Positions 12,298-19,436 are shown, counted from the first letter of the stretch. The stretch is 64,000 bases of DNA from Candidatus Deferrimicrobium sp. (GCA_035531115.1 DATKTP010000204.1:4155-68154), one strand, 5' to 3'. Notes: generated by a model not told the origin, from the sequence alone. Made by a program: numbers and translations.

Positions 12298-12445
12298 ATG
12301 CAGTTAATAATTGATTTTAAAAAATTAACTTACGGTAATAATTCCGATCATATTTTTATTCTCACGAAATAGTTGAACCTTTAAAAATAAGAATTTAAAA
12401 TTAGAGAAGTAAAATTTTGTAAAAAAGAGAAAAATAGGGAGTTGA

Positions 12446-14866
12446 TTACTTCCCAGGGGAAACTTCCTCGAGGATTTTGGGAACGACGATTTTATCCTTG
12501 TATTGGCTGATGAATTCATAAATGGGATTGCGCCAGTAGCCGGGATCGGGATACATGCGGTTCTTGAAAGTGTTGGGACTCGGGATTTCGGGTGAAAGTT
12601 CTTCGCCTGCTTGTTTTTTCCGCGCCCGGATCTCCAGAATTTTCTCTTCTTGGAGGTTTTTAGGCAACATCTGAAAATTCTTAAACTGATAACCGAAGAT
12701 AGCTCGCCCTTGGGTCGAAGATCGAATCTCGTCAGCAATGCCCCCAGTTCCGCCTGTTTCAGATCGTACGGCTTCAGAAGCTGGGATTTCGCCTTCAATT
12801 TCGACATGGTCTCCTGTTTGCTCGGTGTTTACCACTTTACCACGATGTTGGGTGATGATAGTCATAATGGTTCCCATAAATTCAGCGGGCGTTTTTAGAT
12901 CAATGCGTAAAATAGGCTCGAATAATGCAGGATTTGCAGTTAAGAAGGTAATATTCAAGCCTGAAAAGGTCATAACAAATATTTGAGCAGAACGCGTATG
13001 GGAAGGATCTTCATGAATTGTTGCATCTGTAATCACAACTTTGATCCCCATAGCTGGCTCTTTTGCAAGGGCTGACGAAAAGACAAAGTCTCTAAAAGTT
13101 CCGATGATATATCCTTTAATCCGATCTAATCTCTGAACTCCAAGTGTCCCATTTACTAGGATATTCGTACCTTCAATAGCCCAAATTCGTCTTGCTTCTT
13201 TTTTATCCCAGCCTGCATCTCGTAAAAAGGCAGCCCGATCCTTCTCCTCTTGCATCTCTTTGACTTTTCCATCCCTAATTAGTTTGATGGTCTCTTCATT
13301 CAATGGTTCCATATACATTTTCAGTTTATTGTGGCCTTCTGAGCATTTCGTATTGATTTCTATGCCTTTATTTAAAGTGGTTTCATGGTAGACTGTAATT
13401 GGAGTCCCCACCTTAATCGGAATCTCATCTTGGATTCGTTCGATGAGAATTTCAAGTTGAAGGGGATCGATACCGCTCAGAATGTATTCGCCTGATTCCT
13501 CATTCTTCCGAAAAGTCGCGGTAGGGTCGGCAAGTACCCATTTTCTGACTACATCGCCGAGTTTCCCTAGATCCTTGGGATCTTCGGGTTTTATACTGCG
13601 GCTCACGACGGGATCTGAGACATAAAGAATTTTTTCAAATCCTGGAATCTCATCCTTCATCTCAAGGGCCACAAAAGTTTCTCCAGCTGGTTGTATATCC
13701 GGTAATTCCATTGCAAATAAATTCCCTGCGGGAACTTCATCTACTGGTAACAGGCTATCTATTTCCATAACACCTAATCGTCGCACACGTGCCGTTCGTT
13801 TTGCATTTAATAAGTAAATTTCATCCCCTTGCTTCAAGGTTCCACTCCAAATCCGTCCAATAATCGTCGGTCTTTTCGATTTTGGATGAATAAAAATTTT
13901 CGTAATCATCCCTAAGAGTGGTCCGTTTTTATCTACATTAATCAGGGAGTATGCCATGTATTTCTCTGGATCATCCTTAATGGTTGCGGGATCTTTAATA
14001 TCTAACCCCTGCTTGATATCGCCACTCCATAGTTTCAGCATTCGGTATTTTTGAGCCTCCAGCGGGCTTGGAAGATGCTTAATGATTACCTCAAGTAAAG
14101 CTTCGTCTAATGGTAAATTCTTTTTTAACCATTTGATCGGCTCTTTCGTATTTTCTCTAATAGCTTCCGCATATTTTTCCAAGACTAACTTTGCATTCAT
14201 ATCCTTTTGTTTTAATTGGGGAATAGTGAAAGCCCACCCATCTTTTGCGGACCCAAAAACGACATGTCCGAGATCGGGGTTGAGAATCCATTTCTCTTTA
14301 AAGGGCTCTGGAGCAGCCTGCTTTATCTGTACATTAACCTCCTGGATAATTTGCTGAAATTGCTGAATAATTTTATCAGGTGGTAATTTTAACTCCATTA
14401 TTAACCGGTCGACTTTATTTATGAATAGAATAGGTCGACACCATTCTTCTCCCACGCTGAGACCAATATTTGTAATCGTTTGTGTCATACATCCTTCTAA
14501 AGCATCAACCAGAATAACCGCTCCATCACTCCCGCGTAGAGCTCTGGATACTTCTCCAGTGAAGGAGATATGACCTGGAGTATCGTTGATCTCCAGCAAA
14601 TAAGACTTCCCTTCGAATTCATAATTCAGCAAAGCGACACTTGTGAAAATTGTAATGCCCCGTTCCTGCTCCTCATCATCATAATCAGTTAAACGGCGCT
14701 CGCCTTCATAATCATGGCTTAAAAGCCCTGCCCGTCCCATCAAATAATCACACGCAGTGCTTTTTCCATGGTCAATATGCGCCGTAATTGAGAAGATTCG
14801 CCGTAATTCTAACGGGTGCGATTTAATCATTTTTTGAATTTCTTCTACATTCTTTACTTTGACCAT
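12446..14866 (-). CDS. divergent elongation factor 2-family GTPase (aEF-2 paralog-like) with C-terminal extension
   Basis: 806 aa. G1 'AHIDHGKST', G3 'DTPGHISF', G4 'NKVD'. The domain IV loop 'IHEDPSHTRSAQI' departs from the canonical diphthamide loop 'HEDAIHRGxxQ'. About 45 extra C-terminal residues. Confidence 0.9.
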   Translation of the reverse strand: MVKVKNVEEIQKMIKSHPLELRRIFSITAHIDHGKSTACDYLMGRAGLLSHDYEGERRLTDYDDEEQERGITIFTSVALLNYEFEGKSYLLEINDTPGHISFTGEVSRALRGSDGAVILVDALEGCMTQTITNIGLSVGEEWCRPILFINKVDRLIMELKLPPDKIIQQFQQIIQEVNVQIKQAAPEPFKEKWILNPDLGHVVFGSAKDGWAFTIPQLKQKDMNAKLVLEKYAEAIRENTKEPIKWLKKNLPLDEALLEVIIKHLPSPLEAQKYRMLKLWSGDIKQGLDIKDPATIKDDPEKYMAYSLINVDKNGPLLGMITKIFIHPKSKRPTIIGRIWSGTLKQGDEIYLLNAKRTARVRRLGVMEIDSLLPVDEVPAGNLFAMELPDIQPAGETFVALEMKDEIPGFEKILYVSDPVVSRSIKPEDPKDLGKLGDVVRKWVLADPTATFRKNEESGEYILSGIDPLQLEILIERIQDEIPIKVGTPITVYHETTLNKGIEINTKCSEGHNKLKMYMEPLNEETIKLIRDGKVKEMQEEKDRAAFLRDAGWDKKEARRIWAIEGTNILVNGTLGVQRLDRIKGYIIGTFRDFVFSSALAKEPAMGIKVVITDATIHEDPSHTRSAQIFVMTFSGLNITFLTANPALFEPILRIDLKTPAEFMGTIMTIITQHRGKVVNTEQTGDHVEIEGEIPASEAVRSETGGTGGIADEIRSSTQGRAIFGYQFKNFQMLPKNLQEEKILEIRARKKQAGEELSPEIPSPNTFKNRMYPDPGYWRNPIYEFISQYKDKIVVPKILEEVSPGK

Positions 14867-15072
14867 AATAAACCGTCCTGTTCTAATCTGTTTATTTTTT
14901 AAATAAGCGTCAGAATAACTTATAAAATCTTATTCTTTTTCTTAAAAAAAAGGTCTAATCTCACCGTGGTAGCGTTTCCACCATCTTTTAAAACCTTCAA
15001 CTATTTTCAGAAGAGACAAAATTTAAAGTTTATGGATTGCTATAGATCAATTTACTAAGTTTATTTAGATTT

Positions 15073-15942
15073 ATGCTCTTAAATAATATGGAAATTATAA
15101 CAATGAAAATTAAACAAGTTACTGAAAAAAACATTACTCTCACCCTTCCATCAAAACAGCGATATTTGGGATTCATTTTTGTAATTCTCGGATTATTAAT
15201 CCCGCTTCTTATTTATATTTTCAATGGTCATCAAATAATATTGGTGATCGGCTCACCTTTAGCCACAATTCTCTTGAAAATAAGCATCGCTAGTTTTTTG
15301 GGTTATCTTTTTATACAAATTGCAAGTATTTACTATTTCTTTTCAATTAGGAACAATATGACTGCTTATGGGCAGATTATCTTATTAGGTTTAAATATTG
15401 TTGGATATATTGCCTTATATTCCACGATTTTTCTTTTTTCTTCATTTATTATCACCGGAATTTATTTGCTTACGCATTTTAAAACCCTGAATTTCGATAA
15501 AACCACTTCTCTTATTTCCTATCATGAACGTATTTTTGCCCTATTTTATACGAGTAATACCATTCCATTTTCAGAAATCAATGAAATTGTGGTGGAATAT
15601 AAACCAAGATTAGGATTCCGGCAGAAAAAAGGGAATCTGCATCGGGTAAGATTGTATTTTCTTGAAAAAGATCCAGGGATCGCGGATATCCCGACTGATG
15701 ATGAAAAAGAAATAGATACTGTTTTGTTATACCAGCCGCAAATATTGAGAAAAACGCTGATTCATAAACCATTCCTTATTGATTCTTGTTTTTTTAATTT
15801 TAAAGGTTATGAAATGACACGAATTAGTCAATTATTGGAGCAGCTGATACCATTAATTGGATTTTCTTGGTATGCTGACAATATACAGAATAATATTATT
15901 GAAAAGAAATTTAAAGCAGTGAATGTATCTGAGAAAAGCTAA
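15073..15942 (+). CDS. hypothetical membrane protein
   Basis: 289 aa with several hydrophobic helices in the first ~130 residues. Confidence 0.6.
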   Translation: MLLNNMEIITMKIKQVTEKNITLTLPSKQRYLGFIFVILGLLIPLLIYIFNGHQIILVIGSPLATILLKISIASFLGYLFIQIASIYYFFSIRNNMTAYGQIILLGLNIVGYIALYSTIFLFSSFIITGIYLLTHFKTLNFDKTTSLISYHERIFALFYTSNTIPFSEINEIVVEYKPRLGFRQKKGNLHRVRLYFLEKDPGIADIPTDDEKEIDTVLLYQPQILRKTLIHKPFLIDSCFFNFKGYEMTRISQLLEQLIPLIGFSWYADNIQNNIIEKKFKAVNVSEKS

Positions 15943-16729
15943 AGAGTTTGTGAGAAATATGAGCCATTTATGGGAAGTCATTAATAATGTTATTTCGGAT
16001 GCGAATTTAATTCTTGTGGTATTAGATGCTCGAGATCCCTTGGGCACCCGAAGTCCCCAGATTGAAAAAATGATTCTGAATCAGCCAGATAAGAAATTAT
16101 TACTCCTTTTGAATAAAATTGATCTCATACCCAAAGATATTACCCTGAAATGGCAAAAAATCCTAGATAATGAATTTCCCACGCTTATTATAAGCGCAAC
16201 TCGTGGATTTGAACGCACTCTCCGGCTACTACGGAAAAAAATTCTTCAATTCGCTCCAAGTCTCCCTGCGTATGTAGCGGTGGTGGGCTTCACTAATGTT
16301 GGAAAAAGCACGATAATAAACGGGTTAAAAGGCACAAAAATTGTTGGAACCTCCCCTCATGCTGGATTTACACGAGGGAAACAATATGTTAACTTATCAG
16401 ATGATATCCGCCTTATTGATTCGCCTGGGATCATTCCTTTCGAAGGCGATGAGCTAGAGTTAGCTTTAAAAGACCTTATTACACCTGAAAAAATTCAGAA
16501 CGTCGAAGCAGTTGTAAAGGAGATTATTTCACGCATAGGAATGTCCAAAGTATCCTATATTTACAAAATTCAATTTACAAATCTTGATGAACTACTCGAA
16601 AACCTCGCTAAACGCCGTGGTCTACTTATGGCTGGTGGAGAACCGAATACATATGAAGCTGCTAAAGTGGTTATAAGAGATTGGCAGCGAGGACATTTAC
16701 CATTTTACACCCTTCCTCCTTCTGAATGA
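15923..16729 (+). CDS. circularly permuted GTPase (YlqF/YawG, Nug/Lsg1-like ribosome-biogenesis family)
   Basis: 268 aa. Permuted motif order: G4 'NKIDL', then G1 'GFTNVGKST', then G3 'DSPG'. Confidence 0.85.
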   Translation: MYLRKAKEFVRNMSHLWEVINNVISDANLILVVLDARDPLGTRSPQIEKMILNQPDKKLLLLLNKIDLIPKDITLKWQKILDNEFPTLIISATRGFERTLRLLRKKILQFAPSLPAYVAVVGFTNVGKSTIINGLKGTKIVGTSPHAGFTRGKQYVNLSDDIRLIDSPGIIPFEGDELELALKDLITPEKIQNVEAVVKEIISRIGMSKVSYIYKIQFTNLDELLENLAKRRGLLMAGGEPNTYEAAKVVIRDWQRGHLPFYTLPPSE

Positions 16730-16961: not shown

Positions 16962-19436
16962 ATGGCTCAGTTTATGCTTCCAAAACGGTATAATTTCAAG
17001 GAAATTGAACAGAAGTGGATCCAGTATTGGAAGGAGAAAAATATTTACAAATTTGACATCAATGCGAAGGATAAAGAAATTTATTCCATCGATACGCCCC
17101 CTCCTTTCACTTCTGGTACGCTGCATATGGGACATATTCTGAATCATACATGGATTGATTTAGTAGCGCGCTTTAAACGAATGAGCGGCTATAATGTCTA
17201 TTTTCCTCAAGGCTATGATTGCCATGGATTACCTACAGAGTTAAAAGTAGAAAAAGAATTCAAAGTATCCAAGGATGATCGCGAAGAATTCCTGAAAAGA
17301 TGTATTAAATGGACCAATGAAGCAATAAAAAAGATGACATCCCAATTTGATAAGATCGGCTATTCTACAGATTGGCAGTTTACCTATAGGACTATGGACG
17401 AGCGCTATTTGAGAATGGTTCAAAAAACGCTCTTATTTTTTTATGAAAGAGGCTGGTTGTTTCTAGGGGATCATCCCATCCACTGGTGTACGCAATGTCG
17501 GACTGCTCTTGCTAAACAGGAAGTCGGATATATAGATACGAAGGGGAAATTCTGGTATATTAAATTGCCTTTAACTGATAATTCAGGCTATGCCACAATC
17601 GCTACAACGCGCCCTGAACTGATGCCTTCTTGTATGGCAGTTTTAATCCATCCAGATGATAATAGATACTATCATCTATCCCAAAAGAAAGTGAAACTCC
17701 CGATTTTTAACCGTGAAGTTCCTATAATTCAGGATGCGGCAGTTGATATGACCGTCGGAACCGGGATTGTTTATGTTTGCACCTTTGGTGATGAGACCGA
17801 TATTGCATGGCAAAAGAATTATAAACTCCCCATTATCATTTCCATTGATGAGCAGGGAAGAATGACAGAAGCCGCTGGGAAATTTAGGGGGATGCCTATT
17901 GATGAAGCCCGGGAAACAATTGTGAATGACTTAAAAGAAATGAATTTATTAGAAAAAGAAGAAGATATCACGCATAGAGTTATTGTCCATACTGAAAGAA
18001 GTTCTTGTTTAACCCCTATTGAATATTTACCTATAAAACAGTGGTTTATTTCCATTCGCCCCTTTAAGGAAGAAATTCTGGACGCGGCTTATAAGATGAA
18101 TTGGTTTCCCCCTACCATGATTAAACGACTGGAAGATTGGGTAGAATCCCTTGAGTGGGACTGGGTTATAAGTCGGCAGCGCGTTTTTGGAACGCCGATT
18201 CCATTTTATACATGTGAAAAATGTAGTAATGTCATTCCAGCAAAGGATGCGGATATCCCAATTGATCCACGAGTGGATCCGCCCCCACTTTCCAAATGTC
18301 CAAAATGCGGAGGCAAAATTATAGGAACTGTCGATGTCTGTGATTGTTGGATCGACTCCAGTATTACTCCACTCATTATTTCAAAATGGTCCGAGGATGA
18401 GAATTTCTTCAAAAAAACCTATCCTAGTTCTATGAGACCTCAAGGCTATGAAATCATTCGCACGTGGGCGTTCTATACAATTTTTCGATGTCTGAAATTA
18501 ACAAATCTCCCTTGCTTCCGTGACCTTATGATAAATGGGATGGTTGCAGGCACAGATGGCAGGAAAATGAGTAAAAGTTACGGGAATGTTGTTGAACCCG
18601 AAAAGCCTCTTGAAAAATTTGGTGCTGATGCCCTCAGACAATGGGGTGGATTAGGTACTTTGGGTGATGATTATCCCTACAATGATAAAGAAATCGAATA
18701 CAATCTCAAATTTTTAACTAAACTCTGGAATGCCTGTAGATTTACATCCGCTCATTTAAACAATTTTGACATAAAGAAAATCACTGAAGCAAAAATAGAA
18801 TTGACGCCTATCGATGAGTGGATTTTAAGTAAATTAAATAACGTTATCAAAATTGCTACTGAGTCCTTTACCACTTACAATTTCCATACAGGCCTCTCAG
18901 CCTTTAGACAATTTTTTTGGCATGATTTCTGTGATAATTATTTAGAAGCAGTAAAATATCGGCTATATGCAGAAAAAATTGACCCTGCTCAAATAATAGC
19001 GGGGCAATATAGCATCTATAATGTGATTTTGGATTCCCTCAAAATATTTGCTCCAATCGCCCCTTTTATCGTTGAAGAAATTTATCAGTCTATTTATAAG
19101 AAAGATCTCCAGATCCCGAGCATTCATCTTAATTCTTGGCCAACCCCCCGCTATAAGGTGCGCGAACAACTCGACCAAATTGGGGCATTATCAATTAAAA
19201 TCATAGGTGAATTCCGAAAAGAAAAATCCAATAAAGGCATCCCTTTAAATACTCCCATTAAAAAAGCAATTATTCAGATTGCAGGTGATCGAAAAGTGTT
19301 TGATCAAATTGAAAAGGATATTTCAGGTACCCTTAAAATAGACGAACTCATTATTTCTCATGATCCGCCTGCTCGCTTTTTTCATAATAGTTTCGAAATG
19401 CCCGAAGAAAAGATTATAATCCATTGGGAATTATAG
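16962..19436 (+). CDS. valS: valyl-tRNA synthetase
   Basis: 824 aa class I aaRS. 'PPPFTSGTLHMGH' (HIGH), 'KMSKSYGNVVEP' (KMSKS), and a CP1/editing insert. Size and motifs fit archaeal ValRS better than IleRS or LeuRS. Confidence 0.8.
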   Translation: MAQFMLPKRYNFKEIEQKWIQYWKEKNIYKFDINAKDKEIYSIDTPPPFTSGTLHMGHILNHTWIDLVARFKRMSGYNVYFPQGYDCHGLPTELKVEKEFKVSKDDREEFLKRCIKWTNEAIKKMTSQFDKIGYSTDWQFTYRTMDERYLRMVQKTLLFFYERGWLFLGDHPIHWCTQCRTALAKQEVGYIDTKGKFWYIKLPLTDNSGYATIATTRPELMPSCMAVLIHPDDNRYYHLSQKKVKLPIFNREVPIIQDAAVDMTVGTGIVYVCTFGDETDIAWQKNYKLPIIISIDEQGRMTEAAGKFRGMPIDEARETIVNDLKEMNLLEKEEDITHRVIVHTERSSCLTPIEYLPIKQWFISIRPFKEEILDAAYKMNWFPPTMIKRLEDWVESLEWDWVISRQRVFGTPIPFYTCEKCSNVIPAKDADIPIDPRVDPPPLSKCPKCGGKIIGTVDVCDCWIDSSITPLIISKWSEDENFFKKTYPSSMRPQGYEIIRTWAFYTIFRCLKLTNLPCFRDLMINGMVAGTDGRKMSKSYGNVVEPEKPLEKFGADALRQWGGLGTLGDDYPYNDKEIEYNLKFLTKLWNACRFTSAHLNNFDIKKITEAKIELTPIDEWILSKLNNVIKIATESFTTYNFHTGLSAFRQFFWHDFCDNYLEAVKYRLYAEKIDPAQIIAGQYSIYNVILDSLKIFAPIAPFIVEEIYQSIYKKDLQIPSIHLNSWPTPRYKVREQLDQIGALSIKIIGEFRKEKSNKGIPLNTPIKKAIIQIAGDRKVFDQIEKDISGTLKIDELIISHDPPARFFHNSFEMPEEKIIIHWEL

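Follow-up and report, generated by a model that had tools for sequence, protein, structure and literature searches.

The gene encoding aEF-2 in the window

The stretch of DNA analysed here, referred to as the window, comprises 64,000 nucleotides deposited under the name Candidatus Deferrimicrobium sp. (GCA_035531115.1, DATKTP010000204.1:4155-68154). A gene on its minus strand (positions 12446 to 14866) encodes a protein of 806 amino acids, which belongs to the archaeal elongation factor 2 (aEF-2) family and represents a long form found in Asgard archaea devoid of the diphthamide synthesis (dph) genes. The source assembly (hereafter G000) is a draft metagenome-assembled genome (MAG) of 3.67 Mb in 282 contigs with a completeness of 82%. 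Absences have to be read with care there, as neither RpoA′ (TIGR02390) nor the RNase Z ortholog was found. For comparison, 41 genomes of the class and 151 genomes of the phylum (Asgard) were employed, and conservation was counted over 76 homologous sequences.

The Pfam matches GTP_EFTU, D2, EFG_III, EFG_IV and EFG_C correspond to the five-domain architecture G(G′)-II-III-IV-V, and the N-terminus aligns with the homologs from residue 1. Among the NCBIfam models, TIGR00490 (aEF-2) matches best, with a score of 597.7 bits, which lies below the curated equivalog cut-off of 738.45 bits. Among proteins of solved structure, archaeal EF-2 gave the best sequence match (8hl1, 5e-160), followed by eEF2 (~1e-88) and Snu114 (~5e-65). 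Correspondingly, the full-length AlphaFold2 (AF2) model, built from the 76 sequences with a predicted local distance difference test score (pLDDT) of 85.8 and a predicted template modelling score (pTM) of 0.78, retrieved archaeal EF-2 structures as best Foldseek matches with a template modelling (TM) score of 0.86 normalised to the target. The named homologs with 61-88% identity stem from MAGs of Helarchaeota, Lokiarchaeota and Promethearchaeota. An exact-peptide pattern search of the genome contig collection yielded bacterial G-domain matches only. The gene and the motifs on which its assignment is based are as follows.

12446..14866, minus strand: aEF-2 coding sequence, long-form dph-less Asgard type, 806 amino acids plus stop codon
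14756..14782, minus strand: G1/P-loop AHIDHGKST, residues 29-37, GKST replacing GKTT
14648..14662, minus strand: G2/switch I RGITI, residues 69-73, with R69, I71, T72 and I73 invariant (n = 76)
14561..14584, minus strand: G3/switch II DTPGHISF, residues 95-102, catalytic His99 kept and invariant (n = 76), VDF changed to ISF
14408..14419, minus strand: G4 NKVD, residues 150-153, with N150, K151 and D153 invariant (n = 76)
14243..14254, minus strand: G5 GSAK, residues 205-208, with S206, A207 and K208 invariant (n = 76)
13328..13345, minus strand: domain IV loop 2 CSEGHN, residues 508-513, replacing canonical SPxKHN
13118..13141, minus strand: domain IV loop 3 GVQRLDRI, residues 576-583, with R582 at the E660 position according to the alignment with 8hl1
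12992..13015, minus strand: domain IV tip (diphthamide) loop HEDPSHTR, residues 618-625, with His623 kept, T624 (R702T) and R625 (G703R)

The original prediction described a divergent EF-2 with the motifs GKST and DTPGHISF, and all motifs that it quoted are present. The set G1-G5 is complete, including the catalytic His of DxxGH. A P-loop reading GKST in place of GKTT is still a valid Walker A motif; it occurs in all long-form members that cover the motif, and 66 of the 69 other Asgard aEF-2 proteins carry GKTT. Likewise, DTPGH[IL]SF is found in all best Asgard aEF-2 homologs covering switch II. Both canonical loops at the tip of domain IV, HxDxxHRG and SPxKHN, are altered: the His is kept, and the RG dipeptide and K584 are lost. 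Thus, the alignment (n = 76) bears out the earlier observation that the tip loop retains its His outside the Arg-Gly context. In loop 2, the K584 equivalent is a Gly (G511) and the S581 equivalent a Cys. Residues H618, D620, H623 and T624 of the tip loop are invariant in 76/76 sequences, and R582 is nearly so.

The probable translocase, its loop-less paralog and the undetected dph genes

Alignment of 55 EF-2-type proteins from the class genomes revealed two cleanly separated groups, of which the first includes the 806-residue protein.

Group A: switch II DTPGHISF; tip HEDxxHT.; loop 2 ..HN[KR]; ~747-806 amino acids
Group B (the paralog aEF-2p): switch II DTPGH[LV]DF; tip lost; loop 2 lost; ~729 amino acids

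The two groups correspond to proteins described by Narrowe et al. (2018, Genome Biol Evol 10:2380; PMC6143161), who reported that bona fide aEF-2 of dph-less Asgard archaea retains H701, carries R702T together with a correlated exchange of E660 to R/K, and does not conserve K584. The paralog aEF-2p, which lacks the loops, was judged unlikely to translocate, and its presence correlates with dph loss (Narrowe et al. 2018). The 806-residue protein displays H623 and T624, and its residues R582 and G511 occupy the positions of E660 and K584, respectively; it is therefore of the aEF-2 type. It shares the five domains with the dph-less Asgard and Korarchaeota aEF-2 proteins and falls into the same clade, and its host likewise shows no dph genes and has relatives with a loop-less aEF-2p. 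An altered-loop EF-2 in an Asgard genome without dph is therefore already published.

In a quick tree of 99 sequences, the protein is placed in a long-form clade (support 100%) nested within the Asgard aEF-2 clade of the 'HT' type (support 100%), apart from two further clades, one of aEF-2p (97%) and one of eukaryote-like eEF-2 (100%). In line with this, a second, careful tree calculated under a mixture model, from which the columns of the C-terminal extension and the inserts were left out, places the protein in the dph-less Asgard aEF-2 clade with a support of 100. The phylogeny of EF-2, EFL1 and Snu114 proposed along with the original prediction thus locates the protein within aEF-2 and apart from the eukaryote-like clade, although the tree contained no labelled EFL1 sequence.

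In 66/66 genome pairs, conservation is higher for group A than for group B, e.g., with 86% versus 66% identity between G003 and G005. Both genes are present in 31 of the 41 class genomes, eight harbor group A only and two group B only. Since the listed completeness values predict ~2.3 random dropouts per single-copy gene, the two B-only genomes fit chance, whereas the eight A-only genomes, four of which are rated 98-99% complete, exceed it. Throughout the phylum, the group A type was detected in 104/151 genomes at E<=1e-200.

None of the diphthamide synthesis proteins Dph2, Dph5 and Dph6 was detected in the 82% complete G000, and Dph2 was found in 0/41 class genomes. The same Dph2 search was positive in 22/151 phylum genomes at E<=5e-58, which argues against a problem of sensitivity in the class. 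These results support the link to EF-2 paralogs and diphthamide loss that had been suggested before, and they are in line with the report that among Asgard archaea only the Hodarchaeales kept dph together with a single canonical EF-2 (Eme et al. 2023). As no dph genes are detectable, His623 at the tip is very probably unmodified. A Dph2 gene was observed near a contig start in a single one of the ~12 sampled genomes of family f15 (G120:C186:218-1108), where contamination is possible.

The gene at 12446-14866 is the only EF-2-type gene in G000, and thus the search for a second, canonical EF-2, which had been recommended with the original prediction, returned none in this assembly. When tblastn was performed with aEF-2p from three related genomes, it matched this gene only. 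Moreover, the genes flanking aEF-2p in G001, a member of the sister genus, namely DUF2100, an RNase Z-like metallo-beta-lactamase (MBL) gene and a methyltransferase gene, have no orthologs in G000, and the universal gene for RpoA′ was not found there either. Since these genes are missing as well, and since at least 5/6 of the other genomes of the order harbor both paralogs, the absence of aEF-2p from G000 likelier reflects an assembly gap than a real loss.

Several observations concern aEF-2p itself. In genus g8 it lacks the P-loop, with KHIDNYHLFAIETT in place of AHIDHGKTT and stop codons just upstream (L067-L070; G008 C272, G036 C188, G023 C539, G009 C151), so that the protein seems to be decaying or now GTP-independent. 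The aEF-2p gene of G006 (L043, G006:C6:79000-82300) is interrupted near residues 98-100, yielding two match pieces with an in-frame TAA, which could be due to a sequencing error or to pseudogene formation. A gene of the metallo-beta-lactamase/tRNase Z type coding for 307-310 amino acids (Pfam checked in G001) lies directly next to aEF-2p in three Helarchaeales genomes, and this conserved neighbourhood might hint at a link of aEF-2p to RNA processing. The neighbour loci are:

L007:3858-4778 (G001)
L022:3670-4599 (G003)
L011:551-1474 (G005)

Taken together, these data make it likely that the gene stems from an Asgard archaeon of the Helarchaeales type and that its product, aEF-2, serves there as the functional translocase of the ribosome. 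By homology, the protein would bind the ribosome in its GTP state, and the tip of domain IV would then enter the decoding centre and drive translocation of tRNA and mRNA in a GTP-dependent manner, with the lost salt bridge between R702 and E660 being offset by the correlated pair T624/R582. Several points weigh against this assignment. Two genomes of the Lokiarchaeales type, G022 (contig C21; rated 100% complete) and G035 (C29), show aEF-2p only and no tip-loop-bearing aEF-2; at the site in G022 where synteny would place aEF-2, one flank ends ~450 nucleotides short of the contig end and the other flank shows a different gene order. Furthermore, the protein stays below the curated aEF-2 cut-off, aEF-2p often scores higher, and its switch II is altered from VDF to ISF.

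The original prediction had raised the possibility of a paralog with a specialised role, conceivably akin to EFL1 or Snu114, rather than the translocase. Such a paralog might serve, e.g., ribosome biogenesis, and another protein would act as the translocase. The low TIGR00490 score, the non-canonical switch II and tip loops and the extra length are compatible with this idea, as is the fact that aEF-2p keeps the canonical GKTT and DTPGHVDF and achieves a higher aEF-2 profile score. However, it is in aEF-2p that both tip loops, and with them the His, are gone, whereas the 806-residue protein keeps them in a form that is invariant among the 76 sequences. It also carries the bona fide aEF-2 signature (R702T, E660R, K584 lost, His kept), groups with the aEF-2 clade of Narrowe et al. 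(2018) rather than with eukaryote-like sequences (clade support 100%), belongs to the more constrained group in 66/66 pairs and is encoded by the sole EF-2-type gene of G000. EFL1/Ria1 and Snu114 are EF-2-like five-domain GTPases as well, and Snu114 structures align at a TM score of ~0.75. Nevertheless, they form a separate clade with far weaker matches, and the protein contains neither the large insertion typical of EFL1 nor the N-terminal domain of Snu114; representatives of the Snu114-like type carry DTPGHVNF. An affinity to EFL1 or Snu114 was thus rejected on the basis of the tree and the strength of the matches (~5e-65 for Snu114 versus 5e-160 for aEF-2), and we regard a specialised role of this protein as very unlikely. 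Rather, the functional call appears to have been the wrong way round, as judged from the sequences: the loop-less aEF-2p of ~729 amino acids is the candidate for a specialised paralog.

A division of labour, in which aEF-2 accomplishes translocation only in part and relies on aEF-2p, so that both are required for the elongation cycle, would account for the co-occurrence of the two genes in 31/41 class genomes and at least 5/6 other genomes of the order, for the correlation of the paralog with dph loss (Narrowe et al. 2018) and for the complementary degeneration of G-domain motifs in aEF-2 and tip loops in aEF-2p. It is at odds with the eight genomes that harbor aEF-2 only, including those with 98-99% completeness, with the missing P-loop of aEF-2p in genus g8 and with the much faster evolution of aEF-2p. 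We therefore consider such a mutual dependence quite unlikely and retain the assignment of the 806-residue protein as the likely translocase.

When compared with canonical archaeal EF-2 (5h7j from P. horikoshii, 6u45 from M. nitroreducens and 8hl1, a ribosome complex from Crenarchaeota), the protein shares fold, domain order, G motifs and the catalytic His at ~33-40% identity. The canonical factors differ by the loops HxDxxHRG and SPxKHN, the diphthamide, DTPGHVDF and a length of ~730 amino acids. The paralog aEF-2p, a member of the same superfamily found in the same genomes with ~32-34% identity to the protein, differs by the lack of the diphthamide loop and loop 2, by GKTT and DTPGH[VL]DF, by its length of ~729 amino acids and by its faster evolution.

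The long form, its C-terminal extension and the adjacent genes

The protein exceeds canonical aEF-2 in length through the following features.

14138..14158, minus strand: long-form-specific insert of 7 amino acids, RENTKEP, residues 237-243, in the G′ region (boundaries set by analogy to P. horikoshii EF-2, PhoEF-2)
13970..14017, minus strand: long-form-specific insert of 16 amino acids, residues 284-299, past the LWSGD motif at the junction of the G domain and domain II
12743..12769, minus strand: variable Gly-rich loop in domain V, ~residues 700-708, in the closest families only
12542..12661, minus strand: C-terminal helix and tail, residues 736-775, IRxRK...P.P.TFKxRMYPD, common to all Asgard aEF-2, part of domain IV
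residues 751-755, within this shared tail: long-form-specific insert of 5 amino acids
12449..12541, minus strand: long-form-specific C-terminal extension of 31 amino acids, residues 776-806, two amphipathic helices

Hence, the extra length noted in the original prediction is real, but the tail up to about residue 775 is common to all Asgard aEF-2 proteins; the true C-terminal extension comprises 31 amino acids, and the remainder is due to the inserts and the Gly-rich loop. The part of the shared tail reading RKRK..P..P..[FW]..R.Y resembles the general a/eEF-2 ending RKRKGL..P....F.DKL in representatives.

The source being a draft MAG of 282 contigs, the extra length might be attributed to an assembly artefact, a frameshift or stop read-through. 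As the extension and the inserts recur in 47 independent full-length homolog clusters (61-88% identity) and in 13 genomes of four lineages, they are not errors or chance products. Moreover, the ratio of non-synonymous to synonymous substitutions (omega) is 0.10 for the extension and 0.03 for the body, indicating purifying selection in the pair G003 versus G005, which was the only usable one given that synonymous sites are saturated in every other pair, and the full-length AF2 model covers the tail with a pLDDT of ~90. An origin of the tail by misassembly or read-through was thus rejected in view of its conservation across independent assemblies, and we deem an artefact extremely improbable.

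The 284-299 insert is modelled as two short helices with a pLDDT of ~87-89, and the Gly-rich loop drops below a pLDDT of 50 at residues 703-707. In the tail, the full-length AF2 model displays helices at residues 764-770, 775-787 and 796-802. When residues 500-806 were modelled alone, the helices were kept with a pLDDT of 60-80 instead of ~90; the underlying alignment was shallower, with 16 versus 76 sequences. No other part of the protein is as poorly conserved as the extension, whose mean pairwise identity amounts to 31%, compared with 71% for the body. In PhoEF-2, domain IV takes in the 35 C-terminal residues (Tanzawa 2018), so that the extension would grow out of this domain. Being selectively maintained yet fast-evolving, it most probably just decorates the periphery of the structure; direct involvement in the decoding centre is conceivable but is the less favoured reading.

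Within the dph-less Asgard and Korarchaeota proteins, the 806-residue protein belongs to a subclade of ~800 amino acids, the members of which share GKST, Arg/Lys at 703 and Cys at 581 wherever they cover these motifs, and which is further set apart by the three inserts and the 31-residue extension. At position 703, other lineages carry G, S, Q or T. The long form is mentioned neither in Narrowe et al. (2018) nor in Eme et al. (2023), and a literature search on aEF-2p and on structures of Asgard ribosomes or EF-2 found nothing beyond these two studies. Judged by the literature that could be searched, the long-form subclade appears to be new, as do its extension, its basic residue 703 and its distribution across classes.

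The gene is bordered by putative expression signals read from the sequence:

14867..14930, minus strand: putative promoter, ATG preceded by TTTATAA-like and A/T-rich boxes
12405..12445, minus strand: putative archaeal terminator, T-rich stretch directly past the TAA stop codon

In view of the TATA-like region before the ATG and the T-rich stretch past the stop codon, the gene seems to be transcribed on its own. Divergent from it, a protein of 289 amino acids without a Pfam match is encoded, overlapping a GTPase of the MMR_HSR1/RsgA type (268 amino acids), which is followed by a class I aminoacyl-tRNA synthetase of 824 amino acids (window positions 15923-16729 and 16962-19436, both plus strand). 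The gene order around aEF-2 is the same in G001, where the corresponding open reading frames encode 275 and 260 amino acids.

Gene tree, annotation and significance

In a phylum-wide search, the long form was also detected with 64-71% identity in the families f9, f15 and f19, outside the host's GTDB class, whereas f4/f5, which make up the Lokiarchaeales-type sister order in the same class, harbor a form of ~750 amino acids with only 52-57% identity. The careful tree unites Helarchaeales, f9, f15 and f19 in a clade with 100/100 support, and the f4/f5 genes fall into a 98/98 clade together with 14 sequences of 12 other Asgard families. Consistently, the approximately unbiased (AU) test rejects monophyly of the class for aEF-2 with a log-likelihood difference of 311 (p 1.4e-11). 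In the RpoA′ control with the same genomes, the best tree joins Helarchaeales with f4/f5, albeit weakly (58/67), and the grouping of Helarchaeales with f9/f15/f19 is disfavoured (p-AU 0.026). With aEF-2p as control, the test does not reject the grouping by class (p 0.22) and disfavours the grouping by long form (p 0.011). Helarchaeales are the sister group of Lokiarchaeales (Eme et al. 2023). Thus, the aEF-2 gene tree of the long-form subclade appears to be discordant with organismal relationships. This would be explained if the translocase gene had been replaced laterally, or by an ancient paralogy followed by differential loss; as the control trees have little resolution and their p-values are modest, the discordance is suggestive but unproven.

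The RpoA′ matches lie in very long open frames of 1389-2317 amino acids (L121/L125 in G077:C5, L122/L126 in G003:C111 and L101 in G001:C75). In G077 and G003, the match consists of two in-frame pieces with ~1.5 kb between them, which points to an insertion, possibly an intein, and to fused A′/A′′ subunits in Helarchaeales, as noted in the supplement of Eme et al. (2023).

Beyond the assignment as translocase, the long form could be a self-sufficient, diphthamide-independent translocase, in which the basic residue 703 beside the unmodified His and the extension partly replace diphthamide in holding the reading frame, and which spread laterally to at least four Asgard lineages (Helarchaeales, f9, f15 and f19), thereby replacing the resident aEF-2. 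We consider this scenario unlikely.

The scores on TIGR00490 have consequences for annotation. In the class, 0/41 genomes contain any gene that reaches the cut-off. In families f18 and f19, aEF-2p scores 770-811 bits (L127-L130; G067 of f18, G092, G085 and G077 of f19) and the aEF-2 that carries the tip loops in these genomes 590-707 bits, i.e., on opposite sides of the threshold. Since no class gene attains the cut-off and the gene that passes in f18/f19 is aEF-2p, the cut-off does not discriminate in this phylum, and since aEF-2p outscores aEF-2, automatic annotation will name the wrong gene EF-2. In addition, NCBI often labels the translocase-type gene just 'GTP-binding protein'. The gene with the odd loops is thus the likely translocase and the canonical-looking gene the paralog, with the cut-offs and NCBI names reversed.

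The long-form aEF-2, with a basic residue at hot spot 703 and its confidently modelled extension, represents a concrete candidate for studying translation fidelity without diphthamide. Moreover, the strongly supported gene tree of this essential translation factor disagrees with taxonomy as well as with two further genes, which matters because EF-2 serves arguments on the phylogeny of Asgard archaea and eukaryotes.

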